Shown here in pieces: positions 17,392 through 52,862 of a stretch of 64,000 bases of DNA. Below the pieces are notes generated by a model. That model was not told the origin of the DNA. It saw nothing but the letters and a program-made list of their open reading frames with translations, and did no database searches. Each line of letters begins with the position of its first letter. The stretch's first letter is position 1. Origin of the DNA: a virus; IMG/VR virus record IMGVR_UViG_3300023174_000062. One strand, given 5' to 3'. Both the position numbers and the translations under genes were made by a program.

Positions 17392-19092
17392 ATGGCAAAC
17401 CTAGTACTATCACAAGTTGCACTATCTAATACATTCAACGAATTTAGACAATCATATAACGATGTGGCTAACGTTGTAAATTCGATTCAATCGGATCAGA
17501 CTACAAACCTACAAGCAAATACTATCTCAGTTGCTAGAACAGCGACTGTAGGAAACTTAAATTCACAAGGATTTGCAACAGTTACCGGAAACTTTAGCGT
17601 AAATTCAGATAAGTTATCTGTTACTGCCGCAACTGGTCTTGTTTCTATTGCAAATGACTTAAACGCTAACAACAGAATTCGTTTGCACAGTTCAAATGGT
17701 TCTATCACAGCATCAAACACAATTTTCTCGACTAATACTATTTCTCGACATATTGAATCACTTGGTACTGGCGAAGCAATCACAGCAGGTACAGTTTGGC
17801 ACAATGATCGTGGTGAAGATCCAGAACAGCACTTAGTTATTGGTATTGGTGACAAAGACGGCTCACACGATATTGCTGTTGTTAACAGAAGCACAGGTGC
17901 TAATGGATATGCTGAGTTTATTGCATTCTCAGCAACAGGTAATAGTGAAGATGGTTGGATTTCAACTGGTATCAATAGCCCAACATATAGCCAAGGTGCA
18001 TATTCTATTACTGGTCCTGATGACGGTTATCTATTGTACGAACCAAAGAACGGCACATCAGGAAATGGTAACTTGATTATTGCTACTGGTTCTGGTGGCT
18101 CAAGAAATCAAATCATTATTGGTGCTGGTGGTTTCAATAATCCTGCAAATAATCAACAGATGGTTATCACTCCAGGACAAAGCGTTGCAATCACTATTAA
18201 CACACAATCTTCAAACACTACGACTGGTGCTTTGACAGTTAACGGTGGTATTGGTCTACGTGGTAACTTGAACGTTGGTGGTAACGTTGCAATTACAGGT
18301 ACAATTACACTTGGTGGTGGCGGTAACACAGTTTCTACATCATCATTGAGCGTTGACAACCCAATGGTTTTCTTGGGTTCAAACAATGCCGCAGACATTC
18401 TCGACTTAGGTATTGTTGGTGAATACACATCTAGTGGTAGAAAATATGCTGGTCTTGTTCGTGACGCAAGCGATTCAGGTATATTTAAGTTGTTTGCAAA
18501 TAACTCTACTAGACCTAATAATACAGTTGATTTTGCAGACGCAAACAATGCATATGGAACATTACTTGTAGGCACACTTCGTGCAAATAATAATATATCA
18601 TCTACAAGTAACACAACAGGCACATTGGTTGTAACTGGTGGTGTTGGCATTAGCGAAAACTTAAACGTTGGTGCTAACGTTACAGTTACAGGTCTTGCAA
18701 CATTCACTGGTGGTATCAGAGCGCAAGAGATTCAAGAAGACGTTGTAGACACTACACAAGGTTCAAACGTTATTGGTTGTGATTATAGTTTAGGTAACAT
18801 CTTCTATCGCACAAGCACAAACTTTAGCGGAAACTTCACAATGAACATAACAAATGCACCAACAACAGATGGTCGTGTTTTCTCTGTCACATTGTTCCAA
18901 ACACAAGGTTCAACTGGATACAGACCAACAACGTTAAACATTAACGGTTCTGGCGCAACTATCAAGTGGGTTGGTGGAAGTGCACCAACTCCAACATCTT
19001 CATCTGGTGCGATGGATGTATTCTCATTCACAATCATTCGTAGAGGCGCCGCATATGAAGTTCTTGCAACTTCAACATTGAACTTTGCTTAA
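17392..19092 (+). CDS. Tail fibre/baseplate-associated beta-rich protein
   Basis: S.TFNEFR..N N-terminus; repeated STSNTTGAL.V.GG.G...NLNVG motifs; C-terminal IKWVGGSAPTPT..DVFSF domain. Confidence 0.7.
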   Translation: MANLVLSQVALSNTFNEFRQSYNDVANVVNSIQSDQTTNLQANTISVARTATVGNLNSQGFATVTGNFSVNSDKLSVTAATGLVSIANDLNANNRIRLHSSNGSITASNTIFSTNTISRHIESLGTGEAITAGTVWHNDRGEDPEQHLVIGIGDKDGSHDIAVVNRSTGANGYAEFIAFSATGNSEDGWISTGINSPTYSQGAYSITGPDDGYLLYEPKNGTSGNGNLIIATGSGGSRNQIIIGAGGFNNPANNQQMVITPGQSVAITINTQSSNTTTGALTVNGGIGLRGNLNVGGNVAITGTITLGGGGNTVSTSSLSVDNPMVFLGSNNAADILDLGIVGEYTSSGRKYAGLVRDASDSGIFKLFANNSTRPNNTVDFADANNAYGTLLVGTLRANNNISSTSNTTGTLVVTGGVGISENLNVGANVTVTGLATFTGGIRAQEIQEDVVDTTQGSNVIGCDYSLGNIFYRTSTNFSGNFTMNITNAPTTDGRVFSVTLFQTQGSTGYRPTTLNINGSGATIKWVGGSAPTPTSSSGAMDVFSFTIIRRGAAYEVLATSTLNFA

Positions 19093-19133
19093 TTATTGAT
19101 ATCGATTCTATTAGTTATTAACAGGAAAAACAA

Positions 19134-21125
19134 ATGACATTTTTAGCATCTGTATCGGGTAAATTTAGTGCGACAGCGCAAGTAAAATCAAGTGGTGGTG
19201 CGTCCATAGGACAACAGGCGTTTGTTGCGCCTGGAACGTATACGTGGATCGCCCCACCTGGAGTTACTAAAGTTTCTGCTGTTTGTATCGGTGGTGGTGG
19301 TTCTGGCTATAGAACATGGGCTAACTATGGTGGCGCTGGAGGTGGTCTTGGTTGGAAAAATAATATTCCAGTAAGTCCAGGAACTGGATACACAGTTGTG
19401 GTTGGTGACTCTGGTCGTGATCGTTATGGTTCAGCCGGACAAACTAGTTACTTCATCGGTACAGGTACCGTAGCAGGTTATGGTGGTGGTAATGGAACAT
19501 CTGGTTCTAATACTTCAGGTCCTAATTCAAACGGCTATGGTGGTGGCTACACAGGCGATGGTGGTGGTGCTGGAGGAAATTCAAATGGTCAAGCCGGTGG
19601 TGGTGCTGGCGGCTATACTGGTCGTGGTGGTAATACTAGTGAAAACATGTATGGCAATGGATATGGATCCGCATCAGGGGGTGGTGTTTATTCATCAACA
19701 TATGGTACAGGCGGAGGCGGTGGTGTTGGAATTTGGGGTCAGGGCTCCGATTCATACTACTGGACCGGACCATATGGTGTAACAACATCATCAGGCAATG
19801 GTGGTGGTGGTAATGGAGGATCTGGTGGTGGTCGAGGTCACTACGGAGAGAATCCATTTGGATCACCAGGTCACGAAGTTTTTCATCCGGCCGGAGGTAA
19901 CTTTGGAGGCGGTGGCGGTGGTGGTGGTACCAGTTTAGGTCAATTTGGTGGACCTGGTGGTGTAGGTGCAGTAAGATTAATTTGGGGTCAGGGCAGAGCA
20001 TTCCCTAGCACAAATACTGGAGACGTTTCTCCTGCACTTCAAGTTCCATTTCCAACAACAGGTGATGCTGTCTACACTCTTCCAGGAACATATACTTGGA
20101 CATGCCCACCAGGCGTGTCATCAATATCTATTGTTGCTGTAGGCGGAGGTTCTGCTGGTTACGGACCATGGACAGGAACCTATGGTGGTTCTGGTGGCGG
20201 TCTAGGCTACAAAAATAATTATCCTGTATCACCAGGAAGTACCTATACTGTACGAGTAGGTGCAGGTGGTGCAGGCGGTTATGGACAAGACACATATTTT
20301 GTTGGTCGTGGTACTGTCTGTGGCTACGGCGGTGGGACTGGCGTGTTTGGTTATGGTGAGGCTGGTCAAGGTCCTAATGCAAACGGCTATGGCGGTGGCT
20401 ACACAGGCGATGGTGGTGGCGTTGGTGGTAATTACACTGGTTATGCTGGCGCAGGTGCAGGTGGATATACCGGTCAAGGCGGAAATACAAATGCAGGTGG
20501 TAGTGGTGGTAGCGGCGCAGGTGGATATCCATACTCATCAACATATGGTGGTGCTGGTGGCGGCGGCGTAGGTTTGTACGGGCTTGGCAACAGCGGAATG
20601 GTGTATGGCACAGGCTGGTATCCTTACTCTACTGGCAATGCTGTAGGATATGGTAGAATGGGTTCGTATTCGGGTAGCGGTATCGGTTCAGGTGGCAATA
20701 GCGGCGGCGGTGGCTCTGGCGGTGAAAACGGATTCGTTGGTGAAAATGGTGCATACAGTTATCCTGAAGGTGGTGGTCCTACTTCTTATCCTGGTCCACG
20801 AGGTGGTAACTGTGGTGGCGGTGGAGGCGCAGGAGGAACTTCTTGGGCGAATGGCGGCAAAGGTGGTACCGGTGGACTTCGTATTGTTTGGCCAGGAAGT
20901 AGTAGACAATTCCCAAATACAAACGTTGGTGATGCTGTTGGAGATACAATGTATGGAAGAGGCTATTGGGGTGGATCATCAGGAACAGATGGACGTGGTT
21001 CGGTTGGATATTACACCCACATGTTTGGTCCAAATGGCGTAAGAGAACCTCAGTCTCCAGTAAACAATTCCGATTCATCATATATACCTGCATATCAACC
21101 TTTATTTGGTCAGAATTATGGTTAA
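19134..21125 (+). CDS. Glycine-rich virion/fibre-associated protein, paralogue 1
   Basis: Two internal units each PGTYTW.PPGV..S.V..GGG...GG.G.VR..W; very high Gly/Tyr content. Confidence 0.75.
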   Translation: MTFLASVSGKFSATAQVKSSGGASIGQQAFVAPGTYTWIAPPGVTKVSAVCIGGGGSGYRTWANYGGAGGGLGWKNNIPVSPGTGYTVVVGDSGRDRYGSAGQTSYFIGTGTVAGYGGGNGTSGSNTSGPNSNGYGGGYTGDGGGAGGNSNGQAGGGAGGYTGRGGNTSENMYGNGYGSASGGGVYSSTYGTGGGGGVGIWGQGSDSYYWTGPYGVTTSSGNGGGGNGGSGGGRGHYGENPFGSPGHEVFHPAGGNFGGGGGGGGTSLGQFGGPGGVGAVRLIWGQGRAFPSTNTGDVSPALQVPFPTTGDAVYTLPGTYTWTCPPGVSSISIVAVGGGSAGYGPWTGTYGGSGGGLGYKNNYPVSPGSTYTVRVGAGGAGGYGQDTYFVGRGTVCGYGGGTGVFGYGEAGQGPNANGYGGGYTGDGGGVGGNYTGYAGAGAGGYTGQGGNTNAGGSGGSGAGGYPYSSTYGGAGGGGVGLYGLGNSGMVYGTGWYPYSTGNAVGYGRMGSYSGSGIGSGGNSGGGGSGGENGFVGENGAYSYPEGGGPTSYPGPRGGNCGGGGGAGGTSWANGGKGGTGGLRIVWPGSSRQFPNTNVGDAVGDTMYGRGYWGGSSGTDGRGSVGYYTHMFGPNGVREPQSPVNNSDSSYIPAYQPLFGQNYG

Positions 21126-21143
21126 AAAATTTAGGAAAAACAA

Positions 21144-23132
21144 ATGACATTTTTAGCATCCGTATCAGGTAAATTTAGTGCAACGGCACAAGTAAAATCT
21201 AGTGGCGGCGCATCTATCGGCCAGCAAGCATTCGTTGCACCAGGAACATATACATGGATTGCACCTCCAGGAGTTACAAAAGTTTCTGCTGTTTGCATCG
21301 GTGGTGGTGGTTCTGGTCATAGAACATGGGCTAACAGCGGAGGTGGCGGCGGTGGCTTGGGTTGGAAAAATAATATTCCAGTAAGTCCAGGAAGTTCATA
21401 CACAGTACGAGTAGGTGATGGTGGCCGTGATCGCTATGGTGAAGGCGGAGGAACCAGTTACTTCATTGGTACAGGTACTGTAGCAGGTTATGGTGGTGGT
21501 AATCCAAATTCTGGTTCTAATGCTAGTAACGGACCAAATTCAAACAGTTACGGTGGTGGATATGTAGGTGATGGAGGCGGTGCTGGTGGTAATCCAAGTT
21601 ATTATGGTGGTGCCGGTGCTGGCGGCTATACTGGTCGTGGTGGTAATTCTGGTGAAACTATGTGGGGCACTGGTTATGGAGCCGCATCAGGTGGTTGCTA
21701 TTATTCATCAACATACGGCAGTGGTGCTGGTGGTGGTGTTGGAATTTGGGGCAAAGGCTCTGATGGATATTACTTTACATCAAATATTGGTATAACAACA
21801 ACATCAACATATGGCGGTGGTGGCAATGGAGGTTCTGGTGGTGGTCGAGGTCACTACGGAGAGAATCCATTTGTAAGTCCAGGTTTTGAAGTTTTTCATC
21901 CAGCCGGAGGTAACTTCGGTGGTGGAGGCGGCGGTTCCGGCTCAAGTCAAACTACTTTTGCTGGACCAGGCGGTGTAGGTGCAGTGAGATTAATTTGGGG
22001 TCAAGGAAGAGCGTTTCCAGATACAAACACAGGTGATGTTGCACCAGAACTTCAGATTCCATTTCCAACAACAGGCGATGCGGTTTATACACATCCTGGA
22101 ACATACACATGGACATGCCCTCCTGGCGTGTCATCGATATCTGTTGTTTGCGTGGGCGCTGGCTGTGCTGGTTACGGACCATGGACAGGATCCTATGGCG
22201 GTGGAGGTGGCGGTCTAGGATACAAAAATAATTATCCTGTATCACCAGGAAGTACATACACAGTACGAGTAGGTGCTCCGCAACAAAACAGTTATGGACA
22301 AGACTCATATTTTGTTGGTCGTGGTACTGTATGTGGCTATGGTGGCGGTAGTGGCGTTTTTGGAAATGGCGAAACTGGCGGCGGTCCGAATGCAAACAGT
22401 TACGGTGGTGGTTACACAGGCGATGGTGGTGGTGCGGGTGGTACTTACACTAGTTATTCAGGCGGGGGTGCGGGTGGATATACTGGCACAGGCGGAAATT
22501 CAAATGCATATGGTTCTGGTGGTAGTGGCGCTGGCGGTTATGCATATTCTTCAACGTATGGTGGTGCTGGTGGCGGAGGTGTAGGTTTGTACGGACAAGG
22601 CGCATCAGGCTATCCATATGGTTCTGGTTGGTACCCATATTCTACTGGTAATGCCGTAGGCTATGGTAGAATGGGTTCGTACTCAGGTTCGGGTGTTAGT
22701 TCTGGAGGTACAGGTGGTGGTGGTGGCTCTGGAGGCGAAAATGGATTCGCTGGAGAAAATCCTTCATACAGTTATCCCGAAGGCGGTGGAAGTTCATCAT
22801 ATCCTGGTTCACGAGGAGGTAACTGTGGTGGTGGAGGTGGTCCTGGTGGAACAAGTTGGTCGAGGTATAGTTGTGGAGGGGTCGGTGGTGTTCGCATTGT
22901 CTGGCCAGGAAATACAAGAACGTTTCCAAGCACAAACGTTGGTGACGCAATAGGTGATACGATGTATGGAAGAGGCTATTGGGGTGGAGCAAGTGGTCCA
23001 GACGGACGTGGTAGCAACTCAAATTACACTCACATGTTTGGTCCGAATGGCGTAAGAGAACCTCAGTCTCCAATAAACAATAGTTCAAGTACATATATAC
23101 CTGGATATCAACCAACGCTTGGTCAAGCGTAA
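21144..23132 (+). CDS. Glycine-rich virion/fibre-associated protein, paralogue 2
   Basis: Colinear with 19134..21125; first ~58 aa identical. Confidence 0.75.
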   Translation: MTFLASVSGKFSATAQVKSSGGASIGQQAFVAPGTYTWIAPPGVTKVSAVCIGGGGSGHRTWANSGGGGGGLGWKNNIPVSPGSSYTVRVGDGGRDRYGEGGGTSYFIGTGTVAGYGGGNPNSGSNASNGPNSNSYGGGYVGDGGGAGGNPSYYGGAGAGGYTGRGGNSGETMWGTGYGAASGGCYYSSTYGSGAGGGVGIWGKGSDGYYFTSNIGITTTSTYGGGGNGGSGGGRGHYGENPFVSPGFEVFHPAGGNFGGGGGGSGSSQTTFAGPGGVGAVRLIWGQGRAFPDTNTGDVAPELQIPFPTTGDAVYTHPGTYTWTCPPGVSSISVVCVGAGCAGYGPWTGSYGGGGGGLGYKNNYPVSPGSTYTVRVGAPQQNSYGQDSYFVGRGTVCGYGGGSGVFGNGETGGGPNANSYGGGYTGDGGGAGGTYTSYSGGGAGGYTGTGGNSNAYGSGGSGAGGYAYSSTYGGAGGGGVGLYGQGASGYPYGSGWYPYSTGNAVGYGRMGSYSGSGVSSGGTGGGGGSGGENGFAGENPSYSYPEGGGSSSYPGSRGGNCGGGGGPGGTSWSRYSCGGVGGVRIVWPGNTRTFPSTNVGDAIGDTMYGRGYWGGASGPDGRGSNSNYTHMFGPNGVREPQSPINNSSSTYIPGYQPTLGQA

Positions 23133-23163
23133 TTTACAAACTGAAAAATTAGGAGAAAATTAA

Positions 23164-23637
23164 ATGGACTTAAGAATTAAAGTTATTGACGGTGAGGTTA
23201 TCGAACATCCGGTGACTGTAGTAAATCTAAACTATTGTTTTGGTATGGAAATACCACCAGAATATGTTCCTTTCTACAAAGCAGGTATGCCAGCAGTTGG
23301 AGTTTATGAAGTTTGTGAACAACCTTCAACATACACATACGATCCAGAAACAAATACAGTAAGCGAAAGTTGGACTGTTAGAGATATGACTGCCGAAGAA
23401 AAGAAAGCAAAACAAGATAATATTAAAACTATCTTTTTTAGTGAAGATCATCCAACTCATACGTGGACTTCTTGGATTTTCAATGAAGAAACATGTACAA
23501 TGGAAGCGCCTGAACCAGCGCCAGAGCCAACAAGAGAAGAGTCATCACAAGGTATTGGTTTCAATTGGGTTGAAGGCAGAGGTTGGATTCGACACAAAAT
23601 GAATCATGAAACTATGGTATTTGAACCTGTAGAATAA
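23164..23637 (+). CDS. Tail fibre assembly/chaperone-like protein
   Basis: WTVRDMTAEEK..KQ and SWIFNEETC.MEAP.P.P motifs typical of ORFs following Gly-rich fibre genes. Confidence 0.55.
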   Translation: MDLRIKVIDGEVIEHPVTVVNLNYCFGMEIPPEYVPFYKAGMPAVGVYEVCEQPSTYTYDPETNTVSESWTVRDMTAEEKKAKQDNIKTIFFSEDHPTHTWTSWIFNEETCTMEAPEPAPEPTREESSQGIGFNWVEGRGWIRHKMNHETMVFEPVE

Positions 23638-23656
23638 TCTTTTATAAGATTTCAAT

Positions 23657-23688
23657 AAAACCCACCTTCTCGGTGGGTTTTTTATTTT
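23657..23688 (+). terminator. Rho-independent terminator
   Basis: AAAACCCACC-ttctc-GGTGGGTTTT then T-tract. Confidence 0.85.
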
Positions 23689-23697
23689 CCGCCCTAT

Positions 23698-23705
23698 TAT
23701 AAATA
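23698..23705 (+). promoter_or_regulatory. T4-type late promoter TATAAATA
   Basis: Exact consensus after the terminator, before gp13. Confidence 0.8.
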
Positions 23706-23735
23706 GAAGATGAAATTCATTAAGGGGCAAAGTAA

Positions 23736-24485
23736 ATGAGTACAAGCAAACCAGCATCAAGAGAAGAATTCAAACAATTCTGTCTTAGAAGACTAGGTGC
23801 GCCTCTCCTAGAGATAAACGTAGCAGACGAACAAGTTGAAGATTGCATAGAGATTGCGTTTTCATATTACTACGACTATCACTATGACGCAACAGAGAAA
23901 GTCTATCTAGCACATCAAGTCACACAAACAGACATTGACAATAAGTATCTTTCAATAGATGATTCTGTCATTGGTGTGATTAATATTCTTCCATTGGGCA
24001 ACAGTTATTCTACAAACAATCTATTCAATTTGAGATATCAGATTGCACTTAACGATTTGTTTGCTTTCAATACAGGTCCTTTTGCACCATACTACATGGC
24101 ACTTCAGAACGTTGCTTTAGCAGAAGAGTTGTTTGTTGGTAAACAAGCGATTCGTTTTCAACGTCACTCAAATAAACTTTATGTGGATATTGCTTGGGGT
24201 GAGAAAGTTGTTCTCGGAGAATACATCATTGTTGAAGCATATCAACGAATCAATCCAGACACATACACAGATGTTTATAACGATAGATGGCTACAGAAAT
24301 ATTGCACATCACAAATCAAAAAGCAATGGGGTGAAAACTTGAAAAAGTTTGAAGGACTCTCTATGCCAGGCGGAGTTACATTTAACGGGCAGAAAATATA
24401 TGACGAAGCAGTTGAAGAAATCCAGACTATGGAATCTGAAATGATTAGCACATACTCTTTACCTGTTACTGACATGTTAGGCTAA
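23736..24485 (+). CDS. gp13: Neck protein gp13
   Basis: KPASREEFKQFCLRRLGAP.LEINV..EQVED; IKKQWGENL.KF.G..MPGGVT.NG. Confidence 0.95.
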   Translation: MSTSKPASREEFKQFCLRRLGAPLLEINVADEQVEDCIEIAFSYYYDYHYDATEKVYLAHQVTQTDIDNKYLSIDDSVIGVINILPLGNSYSTNNLFNLRYQIALNDLFAFNTGPFAPYYMALQNVALAEELFVGKQAIRFQRHSNKLYVDIAWGEKVVLGEYIIVEAYQRINPDTYTDVYNDRWLQKYCTSQIKKQWGENLKKFEGLSMPGGVTFNGQKIYDEAVEEIQTMESEMISTYSLPVTDMLG

Positions 24486-42392: not shown

Positions 42393-43037
42393 ATGAGTAA
42401 TTATAGCGGTGTGGTAAATCGACCACAAATTAGAGCCAACAGAATTTCTCCTTGGCTTTGGTGGGATGATGCATTTACTGATGATGAATTGAATCAGATA
42501 TGCGAACTGTCTTCTAAGAATTTAGAAGAGGCTAAAGTCTTTATGCCAAATAAAGAAACACCAGGAGCACCTGATTTTCCAAAAGCATTGCCTGATAAGA
42601 GAACATCTGAAATTAGTTTTAATTATGTGGATGATGACAATCGTTGGATATTTGAAAGAATCAATGGAGTTATTAATCATGTAAATTTTTCAGAATTTCA
42701 TTTTGATCTAAATGGATATGAAATGTATCAGTATGCAGAGTACAAGGCAGAGAATTCTGGTCACTATGTTTGGCATTCTGATTTACACATGAATGACCAT
42801 CTAACTCCAACAATGAGAAAGTTGTCTATTAGTTTGGTATTGAATGAGCCTGGAGTTGATTATGAAGGTGGAGACTTTCAGTTTATGAGATCAACACCAG
42901 AAAATTTAGAGACAGTTGAGTTTAAAAAAGGAAGAATGATATTGTTCCCTTCTTGGTTAACTCATCGTGTTACTCCAGTAACTAAAGGTGTTAGAAAGTC
43001 TGCTGTTATTTGGGTTTTAGGACCAAAATTTAGATAA
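42393..43037 (+). CDS. 2OG-Fe(II) oxygenase (prolyl-hydroxylase-like)
   Basis: HYVWHSD, RKLS.S..LN....YEGGDF, LFPSW..HRVTPVT.GVR.S.V.W. Confidence 0.9.
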   Translation: MSNYSGVVNRPQIRANRISPWLWWDDAFTDDELNQICELSSKNLEEAKVFMPNKETPGAPDFPKALPDKRTSEISFNYVDDDNRWIFERINGVINHVNFSEFHFDLNGYEMYQYAEYKAENSGHYVWHSDLHMNDHLTPTMRKLSISLVLNEPGVDYEGGDFQFMRSTPENLETVEFKKGRMILFPSWLTHRVTPVTKGVRKSAVIWVLGPKFR

Positions 43038-45800: not shown

Positions 45801-46265
45801 ATGAATATTATGAGTAACATGACACGACACGCAGAACACGAACTTGACATTATCGGAATGACTGATGATGATGAAATGAATGGAATGATGCGAAAGCATA
45901 TTCTTCACATGATAGAAGAGTTTGCCGAAGAAGGACATAGTGGATTCTCAGCAAGTTATGCCATTCAATGTTTAGAAAAACTTTTGCGCTTTGAACCTTT
46001 GTCTCCTTTACAGGGTACAGATGATGAATGGGAAGATGTAGCAAGTATAAACGGTTCGCCTACGTGGCAGAACAAAAGATGTAGTAGAGTATTTAAAGAT
46101 GAAACAGGCGCATATGATATTAATGGAAAAGTTTTCTGGGAATGGTATACAGATGAAAATGGTGAAAAATTCAAATCGTATTTCACCGGACGTGAAAGCA
46201 GAGTTTATGTTACATTCCCGTATGTACCTACAACTGTCTACGAAGAAAGCGTTGCAGAGTCGTGA
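45801..46265 (+). CDS. Conserved phage hypothetical protein
   Basis: F..EGHSGFSA; PLSPL.G.DDEW; QNKRCSRVFK. Confidence 0.6.
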   Translation: MNIMSNMTRHAEHELDIIGMTDDDEMNGMMRKHILHMIEEFAEEGHSGFSASYAIQCLEKLLRFEPLSPLQGTDDEWEDVASINGSPTWQNKRCSRVFKDETGAYDINGKVFWEWYTDENGEKFKSYFTGRESRVYVTFPYVPTTVYEESVAES

Positions 46266-46798: not shown

Positions 46799-47899
46799 AT
46801 GAAACCTTGGCAACATGGATACGATATAGACTATCTTAAAGGACTTGAAGCGCAGTATGCAGACTACAATGCATATACGTTATCTCCTTTTGCGAAGTAT
46901 AAGAAGAATAACATTGCTGAGTCTTTGAAAAAAGGAACTCTTGTTTTGCTTGGTGATGCAATGATTGATGTAACAGTAAACAAAGTTGCGTCAGACATTA
47001 CAATGCATGGCGACACAGTTATTGCAACAAAATTAAAAGGTGATGTTACAATTGGAAAATTAGTTGGTGATCTCAATGCTATTGAGAAACAAATCAATAC
47101 ATTGTCCGGATCAAACTTTTGGCTATATGTGTGGGCAGAAAACAAAACACATTGTGATTTAGCAGAACAATTAGGATTCTGTTATGTTGGTCCTAAGATT
47201 ACAACCTATGGTGAAGTCTATGCAATTTACTATAAAGGCACAGGCATACCAAGATCATTTCCTAAAGTTGATCCAGCAGAATATTTGAGTATTAAAAAAG
47301 TTGGAAATTTGAACTTAGATTTCATTCAAAAAGTTTATGATAAATTAAATAAACTTCCTGAATTTACAAATCACTACAGCAATTATAACAAAGATAAAGC
47401 ATGGTCTGCATTGTCTTTACGTGGTTACACTAGAGATCCAGCATTCATTACAAAACCATCTGAGATGAATGATAAATGGAAAGAAGAAAACAAAGATAAC
47501 GTGTTTGGTTTAATTGATACGCCATTGTATGAGATGTTTCCCGAAGTGCGTGAATTTGTTGAACAATTGGGTAAAGAAGTGCATCGTGTTCGATTTATGC
47601 GTTTGAAACCAGGTGGTGGAGAACTTGAACGACATACGGATCAAGTTGATTCTGATTCTGGTGGTTCGAAAGGAAAACTTGCACGTATTCATGTACCAAT
47701 TAAAACAAATGATGACGTTATATTTACTGTTTGGAATACCAGAGGTGTTGCTGAAAAGGTAAACATGAAAGTTGGTGAGTATTGGTTTTTAGACACACGC
47801 AAACCACACCAAGCAATCAATGGTGGAACTGAAGAAAGAATTCATTTAGTAATTGACGTAGTGTCAGAAGGAAATTTATATGAGTCGCTTGTATCCTGA
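46799..47899 (+). CDS. Fusion: degenerate GNAT-like domain plus aspartyl/asparaginyl beta-hydroxylase-type 2OG-Fe(II) dioxygenase
   Basis: N-half WLYVWAENK...AEQLGF.YVG resembles GNAT motif B; C-half RFMRLKPGG..ERHTD, RIHVPI.TN, LDTRKPH.AIN.G.EERIHLVID. Hydroxylase well supported, GNAT tentative. Confidence 0.7.
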   Translation: MKPWQHGYDIDYLKGLEAQYADYNAYTLSPFAKYKKNNIAESLKKGTLVLLGDAMIDVTVNKVASDITMHGDTVIATKLKGDVTIGKLVGDLNAIEKQINTLSGSNFWLYVWAENKTHCDLAEQLGFCYVGPKITTYGEVYAIYYKGTGIPRSFPKVDPAEYLSIKKVGNLNLDFIQKVYDKLNKLPEFTNHYSNYNKDKAWSALSLRGYTRDPAFITKPSEMNDKWKEENKDNVFGLIDTPLYEMFPEVREFVEQLGKEVHRVRFMRLKPGGGELERHTDQVDSDSGGSKGKLARIHVPIKTNDDVIFTVWNTRGVAEKVNMKVGEYWFLDTRKPHQAINGGTEERIHLVIDVVSEGNLYESLVS

Positions 47900-48644
47900 A
47901 GATGTTTCTGATATAATCAAAGATTGGAAAGACCCAAACCCTGCACCAATAGTTGAAATGCACAATGGCTTTTATGTTGTACGTGATGACTTATTAGAGT
48001 ATGGAAGTAAAAGTCGATTTATTGACCATCTAGTAAAAACTACTGAGTGTGATGAATGGGTCTTTGGTGGCGCAAACAAAGTTGGTTGGGGTCCTATATC
48101 ATTAACGCATGTGTGCAATCTGTATGGAAAAAAAGCAACGTTCTTCATGGCTAAACGCAAAGAGCCTACGTGGCATCAGCAAAGAGTGCTTGACCTTGGG
48201 GGTACAATTCATTGGGTTGACAATGGTATGCTTACTGTGACAAAAGCAAAAGCAAGACGTTATCAAGAAGAAGACACAAAGCGCAGACAATGTTTGCCTT
48301 TAGGGTTAGAACATCCATCTGTGCTTGCATCGATTGTTAAAGTTGCAAGAGATTTGAAAATCAAACCAACAGAGATTTGGACTGTTGCATCAAGCGGAAC
48401 ATTGAATCGTGGATTGCAAATGGCATTTCCCGATGTGCCTGCGTATGCAGTAGAAATTGGACATAAGATGAGTGACTACGAAAAAGGTCGTGCTATCACT
48501 ATGCGTTCACCATATAAGTATGACCAAGTAGTTGAAGAGAGTCAAGCACCACCATATCCATCTGAGAAATACTACGATGCTAAACTTTGGCAGTTTGTAG
48601 TGAGTAGTGGGAAACCAGGCGCACTAATCTGGAATGTAGCGTAA
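47880..48644 (+). CDS. PLP-dependent enzyme, fold type II (TrpB/ACC-deaminase-like)
   Basis: VVRDDLL..GSK.R Schiff-base Lys motif; IWTVASSGTLNRGL phosphate loop; YDAKLW; LIWNVA. Confidence 0.8.
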   Translation: MSRLYPEDVSDIIKDWKDPNPAPIVEMHNGFYVVRDDLLEYGSKSRFIDHLVKTTECDEWVFGGANKVGWGPISLTHVCNLYGKKATFFMAKRKEPTWHQQRVLDLGGTIHWVDNGMLTVTKAKARRYQEEDTKRRQCLPLGLEHPSVLASIVKVARDLKIKPTEIWTVASSGTLNRGLQMAFPDVPAYAVEIGHKMSDYEKGRAITMRSPYKYDQVVEESQAPPYPSEKYYDAKLWQFVVSSGKPGALIWNVA

Positions 48645-48667
48645 TCAATATTCAAAGGAGTCGAAAC

Positions 48668-48925
48668 ATGAGTACAGAAGAAGATAAATTTAAACATTCT
48701 AAACGAATCCTTAAAGATGAAAATGCAATACGAAAGCAATTGAAAATTGCAAAAGCATATAACATACCAGTTGAGAATCCACACGAACTTGCTAAACATC
48801 ATGCTATGAACTGTGGAAATCCTAATTGTGTGATGTGTGCAAATCCTAGAAAAGTATGGAAAGAAAAAACGATTCAAGAAAAACGTTTTGAACAGACTGA
48901 AAAGTACAAAGAAGAAAATGATTAA
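48668..48925 (+). CDS. Small basic hypothetical protein
   Basis: KHHAMNCGNPNCVMCANPRK; strong SD AAGGAG. Confidence 0.6.
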   Translation: MSTEEDKFKHSKRILKDENAIRKQLKIAKAYNIPVENPHELAKHHAMNCGNPNCVMCANPRKVWKEKTIQEKRFEQTEKYKEEND

Positions 48926-49379
48926 AGAGAAATATCTTGGCGCATACATGAAGACTGCAAGAGTCTTTGCTGAATTGAGTACTGCTAGACGTAAACAAGT
49001 TGGTGCGGTTGTCGTTAAAGATGATCGCATCATATCAATTGGTTACAATGGTATGCCAAGTGGATGGGATAATAATTGTGAAGACATGTTTATTATCCAA
49101 GATGAAATTTCTACTGGTGTGTACTCTCTAACCAAAAGAACAGAACTTAAAACAAAACCTGAAGTTCTCCATGCAGAGTCTAATGCAATTGCCAAACTAG
49201 CAAAGTCTACCGAGAGTGGTGATGGTGCAAGTATGTTTATTACTTGCGCTCCATGCATGGATTGTGCTAAAATGATATTTCAAAGCGGTATCAAAGAAGT
49301 ATTTTACGGTGAAGACTACCGTGATGATGCTGGTATTCGTTTCCTAAATAAATGCGGAATAACTGTAAAACAAATATAA
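48918..49379 (+). CDS. cd: dCMP deaminase
   Basis: VGAVVV..RIISIGYNG.PSG; HAESNAI; PCMDC zinc motifs. Confidence 0.93.
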   Translation: MIKEKYLGAYMKTARVFAELSTARRKQVGAVVVKDDRIISIGYNGMPSGWDNNCEDMFIIQDEISTGVYSLTKRTELKTKPEVLHAESNAIAKLAKSTESGDGASMFITCAPCMDCAKMIFQSGIKEVFYGEDYRDDAGIRFLNKCGITVKQI

Positions 49380-49380
49380 T

Positions 49381-50955
49381 ATGACAAAACATTTTTATGA
49401 ACGTAATGATTGGTTGTTGAACCACGAAACAAACAAGACATTTGAAGAAGTGCAATGGATGACTGAAGACGAATTTCGTCAATGGTTCATCGATTTGCGT
49501 AAAGCAGTCGTACACTCATGGGACACTATGGGTCAGCCACCAAGAGTTGGTTGGGATGAAGATGCAATCAAAAAACAATTCAAAGAGATGTATGGATTTC
49601 CTGTGCATGAGTTTGAACACGTTGACGAATTGACTGGTGAGAAAGATGTAATTCGAAACACTAGCGTAGTTGGCAATGCGGCTAATCAATGGTTCCCGAC
49701 TATGATGAAGACACGCATTAACTATACGAAGAATGATGATGGGCTTTCAATCTATGACCACTTTCTAAAAGATGAATTGCTTGAGAAGACATTGAAGTAT
49801 TCCAAACGACACTTCAAGCGTGATTCGTTCTATGCATATTCAAATACAATTAAAGTCAATGAGATTATCAGCGTTGGTTCTTACAATGTCAAATTTAAGA
49901 ATGGCAATGACTTTGTTCGTTGGTTTGAAGACAACAACATTCGACAATATGGTTATGACTATTGGGTAGAGAGTCGTGACGATGACGAAGAGTATAGTGG
50001 CTACAATGAAAAACTTAAAGATGCAAAGTATCTTGAAGTGACACAAGATATTCTAGAGACAATTCCATCTAAGTCTACAATGAACATAAAGTCGCATGAC
50101 CAGAAGAAGTATCGTCTGCGTATGTACAAGTATGGACAAAAGATTTTTCCTGTCGGCTTAAAAGCATTCCGTGTATCGTGGTGCCAATATGCTGTTAACT
50201 TCCCACCATTGACTGCAAAACTACTTTATGAAAAATTTACTCGACACGTTAAGAACCAAGATAGAATTGTTGTTTACGATCCCTCTTCTGGTTGGGGTGG
50301 GCGTATTTTGGGTGCTATGGCTTCTCGCACTTCTCTTCCTTTACACTATGTGGGTACTGATCCTAATACCGATCACACTATTAATGGCGATGGCGGCACT
50401 ACTAGTACTAAATATGCCGACTTGGCTAATTTCTATAACTCCTCAAAGAACGAAGGAGTTTTGTTTGAACAGTCCAACACTTATGAAATTTTTCAACTTG
50501 GTTCAGAAGTTGTCAGAGATGATAGTTCGTTCCAAAAGTACAAGGGCGAATTAGACATGGTGTTCACTAGCCCTCCTTACTTTGCTAAGGAAGCGTATAG
50601 TGAAGATCCAACGCAATCGTATAAAAAGTTTACTGGCTATGATGCATGGCGTGAAGGCTTCTTACGTCCAACGCTAGAAACTGCTGTTGAGTATTTGCGT
50701 AATGACAGATATCTACTTTGGAATATTGCTGACGCTAAGTTTGGTGCTGACATGTTGCCACTTGAAAAAGATAGCAAAGACATTTTGGAATCACTCGGTA
50801 TGCAATTCAAAGGTGTCGTTAAAATGGCACTAGCACAAATGCCAGGCGGCAATCGTATTGACCCTGATACTGGTTTACCTAAAGCAAAAAACTTTTGCAA
50901 AGTAAACGGGATGTGGTTGAAGTATGAACCAATCTTTGTATTTTACAAGCCATGA
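49381..50955 (+). CDS. SAM-dependent DNA amino-methyltransferase-like protein (N4-C/N6-A type) with long N-terminal extension
   Basis: NFPP..AK..YE (motif X), YDPSSGWGGR (motif I), YVGTDPN, DMVFTSPPYF (motif IV). Confidence 0.85.
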   Translation: MTKHFYERNDWLLNHETNKTFEEVQWMTEDEFRQWFIDLRKAVVHSWDTMGQPPRVGWDEDAIKKQFKEMYGFPVHEFEHVDELTGEKDVIRNTSVVGNAANQWFPTMMKTRINYTKNDDGLSIYDHFLKDELLEKTLKYSKRHFKRDSFYAYSNTIKVNEIISVGSYNVKFKNGNDFVRWFEDNNIRQYGYDYWVESRDDDEEYSGYNEKLKDAKYLEVTQDILETIPSKSTMNIKSHDQKKYRLRMYKYGQKIFPVGLKAFRVSWCQYAVNFPPLTAKLLYEKFTRHVKNQDRIVVYDPSSGWGGRILGAMASRTSLPLHYVGTDPNTDHTINGDGGTTSTKYADLANFYNSSKNEGVLFEQSNTYEIFQLGSEVVRDDSSFQKYKGELDMVFTSPPYFAKEAYSEDPTQSYKKFTGYDAWREGFLRPTLETAVEYLRNDRYLLWNIADAKFGADMLPLEKDSKDILESLGMQFKGVVKMALAQMPGGNRIDPDTGLPKAKNFCKVNGMWLKYEPIFVFYKP

Positions 50956-51587
50956 TTTTCTCACATAAAACATTACGTAATTTTGGATATATGGAATTCA
51001 AATTTAATGAATTTGAATTGAAACCAATTCACGATGAAATTCGAGAAATTCAAAATGAGAATTTTACTAGACACCGTGCAGATGTTCAATTGGTTTCAAA
51101 TTTTGCAAATGAGTACACGCTACCAAAATGCCATGACTACGTTGAAAAACTTTTGAAACCATATGCTCTAGATTATTTTAGAAATTCTGAATTGTGGTCA
51201 AACAACTTAGTTACAGATGACCATGAAGTAAATACGAATATTAAGATGACTCCTTTATGGGTTAATTTTCAAAAGAAGTATGAATTTAATCCAATCCATA
51301 GGCATAGTGGAGTTCTTAGTTTTGTTATTTGGATTGATATTCCATATAGAAAAGAAGATGAGAAATATATAAAATCAGACAATTCGGTTGCGGCCGCACC
51401 TGGATGTTTTAGTTTTGTATATACTGATATTTTGGGTGGTGTAAAAACACATTGGATCCCAGCAGATTGCACTTACAACAATACGATGGTTCTTTTTCCT
51501 GCTGGACTAAATCATTGTGTATATCCATTTTACACTTCAGACAAGTATAGAATTTCTGTCGCAGGAAATTTCTCTCTTGCAATATAA
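50952..51587 (+). CDS. 2OG-Fe(II) oxygenase (TIGR02466-like), paralogue 1
   Basis: WVNFQKKYEFNPIH.HSG.LSFVIW; LFPA.LNH.VYPF......RIS.AGN. Confidence 0.85.
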   Translation: MIFSHKTLRNFGYMEFKFNEFELKPIHDEIREIQNENFTRHRADVQLVSNFANEYTLPKCHDYVEKLLKPYALDYFRNSELWSNNLVTDDHEVNTNIKMTPLWVNFQKKYEFNPIHRHSGVLSFVIWIDIPYRKEDEKYIKSDNSVAAAPGCFSFVYTDILGGVKTHWIPADCTYNNTMVLFPAGLNHCVYPFYTSDKYRISVAGNFSLAI

Positions 51588-51600
51588 AGGAGAAAATAAT

Positions 51601-52278
51601 ATGAAAAAAAATGAATTTGAATTTGAATTTGGTGAGTTTCACAATTTAGGATTTATTGGATTGCAATTGTCTGAAGAACAACTAAAACCAATTCGAAATG
51701 AAGTTGAAACAATTCGTAAAAATTTCAAAGGCCATTTAAAGATAAACAAAGAGTTGGCAGGAAATATTGAACATGAGTATGAATTAAACAAATGTAAAAG
51801 TCATATCTTCAGTATACTTATGCCATTGATGGCTCAGTACATTGAACGTTGGGGCGTCTTCAATAAAATTGGTATGTTGACGAATGATGTTCCAATGGTA
51901 CTTAGTAGTCTATGGGTTAATTTTCAAAAGAAACATGAATTTAATCCTCCTCATGTGCATCAAGGCTTAGCAAGTTTTGTTATATGGCTTGATACTCCAT
52001 TTTCAATGGAAGATGAATTGAATACTCTATCAAGTAAAGATGCCGCTATTAAAATTCCTGGACATTTTCAGTTTCTATATACGGACTCACAAGGACATAT
52101 TCGTCAATGCAATATGCCAGTAGACAAAACATGGAATGGAAGAATGGTTCTCTTTCCTTCAACTATGGTACATGCTGTATATCCATTTTCTACTTCCGAT
52201 GAGTATAGAATAAGTATTTCTGGTAACGTTAAACTAGATACAAGTAAATCTAAAATATCAAATTACAATATGAGATGA
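51601..52278 (+). CDS. 2OG-Fe(II) oxygenase (TIGR02466-like), paralogue 2
   Basis: WVNFQKKHEFNPPH.H.G..SFVIW; LFPS.M.H.VYPF......RISISGN; ATG at 51601 after AAGGAG. Confidence 0.85.
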   Translation: MKKNEFEFEFGEFHNLGFIGLQLSEEQLKPIRNEVETIRKNFKGHLKINKELAGNIEHEYELNKCKSHIFSILMPLMAQYIERWGVFNKIGMLTNDVPMVLSSLWVNFQKKHEFNPPHVHQGLASFVIWLDTPFSMEDELNTLSSKDAAIKIPGHFQFLYTDSQGHIRQCNMPVDKTWNGRMVLFPSTMVHAVYPFSTSDEYRISISGNVKLDTSKSKISNYNMR

Positions 52279-52862
52279 GTTTATATTTTACTAATCACAT
52301 TGTTTCACCTTTATCTCAAGATGTTATAGATGATCTTAGAAAGTTTGACTGGCACACAATCATAGATAAAGGAAATAAATTAGAAGACTTGAATGATAGA
52401 CAATGGAGATTCATCAAAGGCTTGGTTATAGAATTGATTGTGGAGAAGTATAGTGGAGAAGATGGACTAACTTATGTTGGAGATTCATTCAAAGATTATT
52501 TTTGGAAAAAATATAATCTAACTGTAGAATTAAAAAGTGGTTTGTCTGGAAGCATGTATGGTAAAAAAGGAAATTTAAATAAAAATTTCAACATCAAACT
52601 TAACAACAGTAACGGCACCAATAAAAAATCTACATTAGAACTAAGTGAAGTTGCCGACATATTGCTTGTAATCAAAAATGACGGAGCATTTGTTGTTGAC
52701 AACAATACTATAATCAGATGCAGTATGAAAAGTGGAGATGGATTTGATCTTGTATTGAATAGGGGTGACGTTACTCCTATAACTGGTAAACTATATTCAA
52801 ATACTTGTGGCGAATTGAATCTAAAAGAAAAAATTATGAATGCTATCAGAGGTGTAATCTAA
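52275..52862 (+). CDS. Hypothetical protein, possible PD-(D/E)XK restriction-endonuclease-like nuclease
   Basis: RFIKG...E...; KDY........VELKS spacing compatible with E..D..ExK; very AT-rich. Confidence 0.4.
   Translation: MSLYFTNHIVSPLSQDVIDDLRKFDWHTIIDKGNKLEDLNDRQWRFIKGLVIELIVEKYSGEDGLTYVGDSFKDYFWKKYNLTVELKSGLSGSMYGKKGNLNKNFNIKLNNSNGTNKKSTLELSEVADILLVIKNDGAFVVDNNTIIRCSMKSGDGFDLVLNRGDVTPITGKLYSNTCGELNLKEKIMNAIRGVI

Follow-up and report, generated by a model that had tools for sequence, protein, structure and literature searches.

A candidate DNA base hypermodification module built around an SPPY amino-methyltransferase-fold enzyme in uncultured T4-like phages

Do eight tightly packed genes of an uncultured phage make up a single pathway that alters the bases of its DNA or, if they do not, which of them belong together and what chemistry might they perform? 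The question is raised by positions 46799-52862 of the IMG/VR record IMGVR_UViG_3300023174_000062, a stretch of 64,000 nucleotides (nt; hereafter the window) that forms part of an uncultured T4-like myovirus, its gp46 being approximately 48% identical to the gp46 proteins of Synechococcus myoviruses. The region is flanked by gp47, a 2-oxoglutarate (2OG) oxygenase gene, gp46 and the peptide deformylase gene (pdf) on one side and by CobT-like and CobS genes on the other. It holds eight open reading frames (ORFs) on the plus strand, designated G1 to G8 (Table 1), none of which overlaps its neighbour, or is separated from it, by more than 23 nt. An earlier annotation made from the letters of the window (the sequence-only reading) had reported eight tightly coupled genes, which we confirmed at the coordinates given in Table 1, and had suggested that together they form one DNA hypermodification operon. 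Our analysis revealed that the eight genes are not one conserved unit: G5, an enzyme of the SPPY amino-methyltransferase fold, is constant, while G1, a fusion of a GNAT fold with an AspH-type oxygenase, and G2, a pyridoxal 5'-phosphate (PLP) enzyme, are its optional companions. On balance we favour the view that G5, G1 and G2 constitute one post-replicative DNA base hypermodification module and that the five other genes are unrelated neighbours.

Conservation of G5 and its association with G1 and G2

With G5 and G2 as queries, 130 related IMG/VR loci were gathered and all proteins of the window were mapped onto them by tblastn; 272 IMG/VR stretches were found to be related to G5. A scan of genome contigs returned only 12 loci, all in metagenome-assembled genomes (MAGs). 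Synteny was counted in 59 G5-anchored loci of uncultured T4-like phages for which the whole interval from gp46 to G5 was covered. The common gene order is gp47-gp46-pdf-(G1)-(G2)-(G3, G4)-G5-...-cobT-cobS. G5 was present in 59 of 59 loci, accompanied by both G1 and G2 in 30, by G1 only in 15, by G2 only in three and by neither in 11; furthermore, for three near-complete genomes with G1 and G5 a profile search confirmed that the absence of G2 is genuine. A constant G5 with optional G1 and G2 is the pattern expected of an installing enzyme with optional tailoring enzymes.

The remaining genes behave differently. G3 and G4 lie inside the gp46-to-G5 interval in the closer clades only, and 32 of the 39 distant loci lack both. 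G3 was found between G2 and G5 only where the G5 of the relative is at least 75% identical and was absent from all 39 more distant loci, while G4 changes its position, being next to G5, several kilobases away or missing from the locus. Downstream of G5, the oxygenases were found in three and G8 in one of 53 loci, even though the G5 of many relatives is 94-99% identical. None of the five genes occurs in the fused proteins described below. The proposal that all eight genes, including the dCMP deaminase, the additional 2OG oxygenases and a terminal nuclease, serve one pathway thus draws on the tight coupling of the eight ORFs in the window, but the distribution of these genes and the lack of nuclease evidence for G8 make it extremely improbable. 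Since G3, G4, G6, G7 and G8 are not co-conserved with G5, the eight-gene operon of the sequence-only reading had to be abandoned; these five genes are best explained as unrelated neighbours in a variable accessory region.

The association of the three remaining genes is seen most directly where they are joined in one polypeptide. A search for longer relatives of G2 retrieved 21 fused proteins. Six of them (P0125, P0126, P0129, P0131, P0132 and P0133, the last labelled Nitrosomonas nitrosa; 1,057-1,191 amino acids (aa)) begin with a G5-like part, continue with a G1-like part and end with a G2-like part; the alignment takes in G1 and G5 from end to end, and all motifs are present: DPxxGxGGRLLG and TSPPYF together with the N-terminal domain in the G5-like part, the GNAT-like domain and RHTD...PH...RxH in the G1-like part, and GSKxRF, SSGTLSRGLQ and the C-terminal YDAKxW...WNVA in the G2-like part. 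Shorter fusions of approximately 680 aa (P0136-P0139) combine G5 with G2, and two further proteins (P0065 and P0070) combine G1 with G2. When ten long G2-family representatives, no two of them from the same cluster at 50% identity, were scanned against Pfam, seven carried PALP together with PF01555 in at least three domain orders, one carried ParB_N and one AspH. The ParB-DNA methylase gp1 of Erythrobacter phage vB_EliS_R6L (phrog_498, 8e-138) is interrupted by a G2-type domain, which lies after motif I and before motif IV; the latter reads SCPPY and aligns with motif IV of G5. Microcystis phage Mae-JY30 encodes a G2 homologue as a separate protein, and its gene overlaps a PF01555 gene at the end of the latter. 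The variety of these fusions and insertions indicates that the link between the PLP domain and DNA amino-methyltransferases is recurrent and arose independently several times. G5, G1 and G2 are one functional unit.

The fused genes are located on islands that encode an integrase or a resolvase, with restriction genes of Type I and Type ISP (or Mrr-helicase) next to them. Among their neighbours on the cellular islands we observed a conserved protein of 215-229 aa and no known family (L153, 7340-8029; L161, 7346-8029; L160, 1750-2397), 28-52% identical between islands, whose gene overlaps the beginning of the fused gene (methylase-PALP or methylase-GNAT/AspH-PALP); in L161 an Mrr_cat_2-helicase gene lies just upstream. 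This protein may be a fourth component or a part of a restriction-modification-like system. It has no counterpart in the window, and the neighbours of the fused genes on the cellular islands matched no PADLOC or Pfam family.

Folds and relatives of the three enzymes

G2 belongs to the same family as gp52 of phage M6. Both match phrog_7093 (6e-28 for G2 and 2e-159 for gp52), and a profile comparison with hhalign aligned the two over 217 columns with a probability of 98.3% and an E-value of 2.4e-14. The aligned columns include the lysine, the SSGT loop and, towards the C-terminus, a characteristic signature that in G2 reads PPYPS..YDAK.W...WNV. The invariant Lys44 (GSKSR) and S171-S172-G173 are conserved in 23-25 sequences, the next threonine is nearly invariant, and K44 aligns with the SK of gp52, a protein in which K36 has been proposed as the aldimine lysine (PMC8989533). 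Purified M6 gp52 and ViI gp226 are PLP decarboxylases of amino acids attached through their side chains to thymine in polymeric DNA (Lee et al., PMC8989533). A single-sequence search of the PDB with G2 found nothing, and the G2 profile retrieved noise only, with no PDB relative at E <0.1. A HMMER scan of 1.84 billion cluster representatives with the same profile yielded 1,493 relatives, of which 980 had an E-value of 1e-10 or lower. Distant relatives of G2 (24-27% identity) were also observed in Bdellovibrionales/Pseudobdellovibrionaceae MAG loci (L139-L144), in chromosomal-looking contexts with no adjacent methylase; one of them (L141, 7911-8732) lies approximately 1.5 kb from an S-adenosylhomocysteine (SAH) hydrolase gene.

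The model of G1 (predicted local distance difference test score, pLDDT, 91.6) comprises two domains. The C-terminal half (residues ~157-364) matches PF05118 (AspH) with an E-value of 5e-13 and 49.5 bits against a cut-off of 22.6, adopts the double-stranded beta-helix fold of the AspH/proline-hydroxylase type and resembles 4p7x (Z 15.5), the nucleoside-antibiotic beta-hydroxylase 7v4p (15.1) and AspH (15.0); the oxygenase residues H279-x-D281 and H337 and the 2OG-binding R347 are all invariant. Residues 9-150 adopt a GNAT fold, with 2pc1 (Z 12.3, root-mean-square deviation (rmsd) 3.5, 137 residues aligned), 2fia (11.4) and Naa60 (10.7) as structural matches. This GNAT assignment rests on the structural match; the domain has no Pfam match and an Atlas search gave sub-threshold acetyltransferase-like viral clusters only.

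Among cultured phages, G1 is related to gp4 of Mycobacterium phage LilMcDreamy (hhalign probability 99.7%, E 1.4e-25). The gene for gp4 overlaps the end of the gene for gp3, an amino-acid:DNA transferase (PF18724, 47 bits, above the cut-off), and upstream of gp3 lie gp1, annotated as ParB-like, and gp2, which gives a weak match to Tet_JBP. ParB-dependent T-dioxygenase hypermodification clusters have been described and the genes for LilMcDreamy gp1-gp4 match them (PMC13229309). The stretch (L159, 1-3759) comes from a cultured phage and has the appearance of a cluster for thymidine hypermodification that has yet to be characterised. Its gene 2 carries the annotation 'queuine tRNA-ribosyltransferase', which is misleading, the weak Tet_JBP match being the only one. 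Through LilMcDreamy gp4 and M6 gp52, G1 and G2 have relatives among the enzymes of pathways that work with amino acids on DNA, and both families are seen to occur where an amino acid hangs on a DNA base. The earlier suggestion that the methyltransferase-fold enzyme primes a base, which the PLP enzyme and the oxygenase/acyltransferase then tailor, is supported by the G5-G1-G2 fusions and by the homology of G2 to gp52.

The C-terminal domain of G5 (model pLDDT 84) has a class-I Rossmann methyltransferase fold of the amino-methyltransferase type. Motif I, DPSSGWGGR (300-308), and motif IV, TSPPYF (396-401), are kept in all 19 family members, the fused forms included, and the invariant residues of the family are D300, P301, G304, G307, R308, D327, P328 and T396-F401. 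Its nearest relatives by sequence are phage genes annotated as N4-cytosine or DNA methylases, together with the solved structure 2zie, and its best matches among predicted viral structures are likewise annotated as N4-cytosine DNA methylases. A single-sequence search of the PDB with G5 found nothing. The N-terminal domain of approximately 260 aa has no Pfam match, no informative Atlas neighbour and no separate structural match. A predicted complex of G5 with G2 scored 0.30 against a mark of 0.32, which gives no verdict, and it was used neither for nor against their interaction.

A proposed route from S-adenosylmethionine to a tailored base

What would G5 have to install if G2 is to act after it? 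A PLP enzyme requires a primary amine beside a carboxylate and a methylated base has none, which argues that the group placed by G5 bears an amino acid. The minimal methylase-PALP fusions hold no other protein that could deliver an amino acid, hence the group should come from S-adenosylmethionine (SAM), and the 3-amino-3-carboxypropyl (acp) arm is the only such group of SAM. In the pathway that we propose, G5 would be the installer and would transfer an amino-acid-bearing group of SAM, instead of or besides methyl, to a nitrogen of a base, with the exocyclic N4 of cytosine or the N6 of adenine as the probable site; in the simplest case the group would be acp and methylthioadenosine would be released. 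G2 would then bind the free alpha-amine of this amino acid as a Schiff base and remove the carboxylate, so that a 3-aminopropyl arm is left, a step exactly analogous to that of gp52 acting on C-alpha-glycinylthymidine. The AspH-type domain of G1 would hydroxylate a side-chain carbon and its GNAT-fold domain may acylate the amine. Shielding of phage or mobile-element DNA from restriction would be the likely purpose. Since neither G1 nor G2 is obligatory, the end product would differ between phages. Such a pathway would explain why G1 and G2 are dispensable and G5 never is, and why the thymidine machinery is absent. More tentatively, G5 might be the first DNA aminocarboxypropyl (or aminopropyl) transferase and might, with G2 and G1, make cationic or zwitterionic N-alkylated bases that are widespread in aquatic T4-like phages and occur also on bacterial mobile islands by restriction systems; we put this forward as a possibility that falls short of being probable.

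We searched for the enzymes of the established thymidine route in five module-bearing relatives whose genomes are near-complete, two of which have terminal repeats. The ThyA-family hydroxymethylase type (PF00303) was found in none of the five, while ThyX was present in four, and Tet_JBP (PF12851) was also found in none, in a search made without a positive control. Neither the 5-hydroxymethyldeoxyuridine (5-hmdU) DNA kinase (PF18748) nor the amino-acid:DNA transferase (PF18724) was detected in any of the five, the control search for PF18724 on phage M6 being positive. The absence of the last two enzymes from the window, pointed out in the sequence-only reading, thus extends to these five relatives. 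Since the known 5-hmdU enzymes are absent, the amino-acid handle would not come from the known route.

The same genomes bear on an alternative in which the cofactor is tailored before transfer. Here G2 would make decarboxylated SAM (dcSAM) from free SAM, G1 would perhaps alter the methionine part and G5 would be a DNA aminopropyl transferase; the end product, an aminopropylated base, would be the same as in the pathway proposed above and the order of steps alone would differ. In one of the relatives without G2 a gene for a SpeD-type SAM decarboxylase is present, and a lone G5 would work if the host supplied dcSAM. Phages offer a precedent of a cofactor that is altered first in CmoA/CmoX, where CmoA makes carboxy-SAM (Cx-SAM), and spermidine synthase, which also has the methyltransferase fold, uses dcSAM. 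In structure G5 also resembles the aminopropyl transferase BpsA, but only as a generic fold match (Z 12.3). Nevertheless, the proven relative of G2 acts on amino acids bound to DNA and not on a free cofactor, and genomes with G1 only are hard to explain if G1 acts on SAM. A SpeD-like gene in just one of the five genomes, moreover, provides no systematic support for a dcSAM route, and we regard this order of events as unlikely.

Several points weigh against installation of an acp group on DNA by G5. The DNA target, the acp or aminopropyl chemistry, the order of the steps and the target atom are what we infer from the folds and relationships above, and as far as its sequence and model can tell, G5 appears to fit acp, aminopropyl or methyl transfer alike. 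The match of G5 to PF01555 reaches 19.2 bits, below the cut-off of 26.7, and covers residues 392-472 only; that of G2 to PALP is weak and lies below the curated cut-off. The Q/R-x-x-G-x-G/A acetyl-CoA loop was not seen by eye in the alignment of G1, where the corresponding stretch (~88-95) is variable, so that acylation is doubtful. The Bdellovibrionales relatives of G2, having no adjacent methylase, indicate that its fold can serve other purposes. The two remaining points, the loci in which G5 stands alone and the solved structures that it resembles most, each fit an alternative of their own.

The 11 of 59 loci with G5 alone also suit a plain methylase for N4-methylcytosine (m4C) or N6-methyladenine (m6A), of which SPPY is, for m4C, the classic motif. 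G5 would then be an ordinary N4-cytosine/N6-adenine anti-restriction methyltransferase, with G1 and G2 as small-molecule helpers (removal of SAH/homocysteine, or action on free amino acids) and with the fusions as a means of channelling. Among solved structures the oxygenase domain of G1 is indeed closest to free-proline hydroxylases, fold-type II PLP enzymes include enzymes of homocysteine and cysteine, and distant relatives of G2 are located near a SAH hydrolase gene. However, the C-terminal signature of G2 is common to M6 gp52 and not to cysteine/cystathionine synthases, to which the lack of any PDB relative of its profile at the above threshold can be added; the G1 homologue lies inside an amino-acid:DNA transferase cluster, and the insertion of PALP within a ParB-methylase is hard to square with metabolism. 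We assign this explanation a low probability.

The second alternative is a module that modifies RNA (tRNA or rRNA) or protein, for instance by an acp-type RNA modification or at a protein amide nitrogen. The best matches of G5 among solved structures are the tRNA N2-methylguanosine (m2G) methyltransferases aTrm11 (Z 15.2, rmsd 3.1, 180 residues aligned) and TrmN (14.5), with lmo1582 (14.4), METTL5 (13.2) and PrmC (12.3) behind them, and the flatness of this ranking (Z 15 to 12) makes the fold compatible with an RNA target. One source names the fused proteins TrmN6, and all known acp modifications are on RNA. On the other hand, G2 is fused to ParB and to the DNA methylase family PF01555, clusters for DNA hypermodification contain relatives of G1 and G2, the fused forms stand beside restriction systems and the best viral structural matches of G5 carry the DNA N4-cytosine methylase annotation. 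An RNA or protein target thus appears decidedly unlikely, and the DNA base module of G5, G1 and G2 remains the reading that we prefer.

Post-replicative hypermodification is known from phages; the installer proposed here would be new, and the chemistry itself might be new to DNA. In the literature we found no description of the G5-G1-G2 module or of acp/aminopropyl DNA bases. The thymidine pathways of M6, ViI and PaMx11 share with the module the tailoring of an amino acid on a DNA base after replication, a PLP enzyme of the gp52 type and a similar acetyltransferase/oxygenase logic. They differ in that the relatives carrying the module are without a 5-hmdU source, the 5-hmdU DNA kinase and the amino-acid:DNA transferase, and the installer has a SAM-dependent amino-methyltransferase fold; the target of G5 is probably a base nitrogen and not C5 of thymine, and the group is probably derived from SAM and not from a free amino acid. 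CmoX of Synechococcus phage S-B43 has a methyltransferase fold, takes a group other than methyl from a SAM derivative and attaches it to DNA, where it serves as a handle for later steps of modification (PMC12783734). The CmoA/CmoX/CmoY system, which produces 5-carboxymethylcytosine, therefore resembles the module in that a phage methyltransferase fold places a non-methyl handle on DNA that further enzymes extend. In contrast to G5, which is of the SPPY amino-methyltransferase type, CmoX is a homologue of C5-cytosine methyltransferases and uses Cx-SAM made by CmoA, and the tailoring is performed by an ATP-dependent amide ligase, whereas G1 and G2 are of the 2OG and PLP types.

The ParB-fused or orphan N6/N4 methyltransferases of phages (PF01555, phrog_498) have the motif IV region and the fold of G5, and one of them, R6L gp1, carries the inserted G2 domain. 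G5 differs from them by its score below the family cut-off, by its N-terminal domain of no known family and by its fusion-linked PLP and oxygenase partners, which would find nothing to act on if the base were only methylated. The chemistry proposed for G5 has its parallel in Tyw2 of wybutosine synthesis and in spermidine synthase, class-I methyltransferase folds that move the aminocarboxypropyl or aminopropyl group of SAM or dcSAM and act on tRNA or polyamines; they are compared with G5 here by chemistry and not by a specific sequence relationship.

The entry points of phage hypermodification known so far are C5-hydroxymethyl pyrimidines, the exchange of guanine for 7-deazaguanine and, recently, carboxymethylation with Cx-SAM. 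If the proposed pathway is true, direct transfer of an amino-acid group from SAM to a base would be a new entry point and would bring acp-type chemistry from RNA to DNA. It could also explain restriction resistance in an abundant clade of uncultured aquatic T4-like phages. The single-polypeptide fusions and the cultured phages Erythrobacter R6L, ZS04 and Microcystis Mae-JY30 make the module directly testable, and the enzymes could become tools for sequence-specific DNA alkylation.

Neighbouring genes and genomic setting

Table 1. The eight plus-strand ORFs of the region, with their spacing to the preceding gene and their assignment.
Gene	Position	Strand	Length (aa)	Spacing	Assignment	Place in the locus
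G1	46799-47899	+	366		GNAT fold and AspH-type Fe(II)/2OG oxygenase	putative tailoring enzyme
G2	47880-48644	+	254	20-nt overlap with G1	fold-type II PLP enzyme	putative tailoring enzyme
G3	48668-48925	+	85	23-nt gap after G2	Cys/His-rich protein, phrog_4499	clade-specific neighbour
G4	48918-49379 (most likely; ORF open from GTG at 48837)	+		8-nt overlap with G3	dCMP deaminase	
G5	49381-50955	+	524	1-nt gap after G4	SPPY amino-methyltransferase fold	anchor enzyme
G6	50952-51587	+		4-nt overlap with G5	2OG-FeII_Oxy_5 oxygenase	variable accessory gene
G7	51601-52278 (most likely; ORF open from GTG at 51517)	+		13-nt gap after G6	paralogue of G6	variable accessory gene
G8	52275-52862	+	195	4-nt overlap with G7	ORF matching no family	rare accessory gene

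Seven of the eight domain assignments of the sequence-only reading hold, G8 being the case in which the label, PD-(D/E)XK, found no support. G4 matches PF00383 (6.5e-22, 77.8 bits) and phrog_174 (1e-51), contains the zinc motifs HAE (HAESNA) and PCxxC (CAPCMDC) and resembles T4 cd; it is an ordinary gene of nucleotide metabolism and not a core part of the module. The oxygenase G6 (PF13759, 1e-7; phrog_81) is of a type common in cyanomyoviruses, and G7 (PF13759, 7e-11) is 40% identical to it (BLASTP 1e-51). G8 has no match in Pfam, PHROG, PDB or phage proteins; its other traces are a weak match to PADLOC PDC-M62A (E 2.6e-4) and a D...ELK string in the sequence, and a second copy, 88% identical, was found in locus L119. 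Nothing supports the idea that a terminal nuclease cuts unmodified DNA. A scan for promoters and terminators returned sites no more numerous than expected by chance.

Upstream of the region, an ORF on the plus strand (45801-46265, 154 aa) encodes a homologue of Tad3, an inhibitor of Type I Thoeris (PF25185, E 2.7e-42, 143.8 bits). It ends approximately 0.5 kb before the start of G1 and is present only in a few close relatives (e.g. L013, L016 and L017). The stretch from pdf to cobT looks like a hotspot of variable accessory and counter-defence genes, a location that would fit an anti-restriction role. A third 2OG-Fe(II) oxygenase gene (42393-43037, plus strand, phrog_61) lies between gp47 and gp46 and occurs in some relatives only, with 38-42% identity and 98% in L027; its patchy distribution suggests that such oxygenases are gained and lost freely in this group of phages.

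Elsewhere in the window, positions 18000-24000 stand out by a GC content of 0.44-0.49, compared with approximately 0.36 in the rest, and by a strong positive GC skew. This stretch includes two plus-strand ORFs of approximately 660 aa each (19134-21125 and 21144-23132), the first without a Pfam match and the second matching PF21722, Gly_rich_2 (2e-6); they probably encode glycine-rich structural or fibre proteins.

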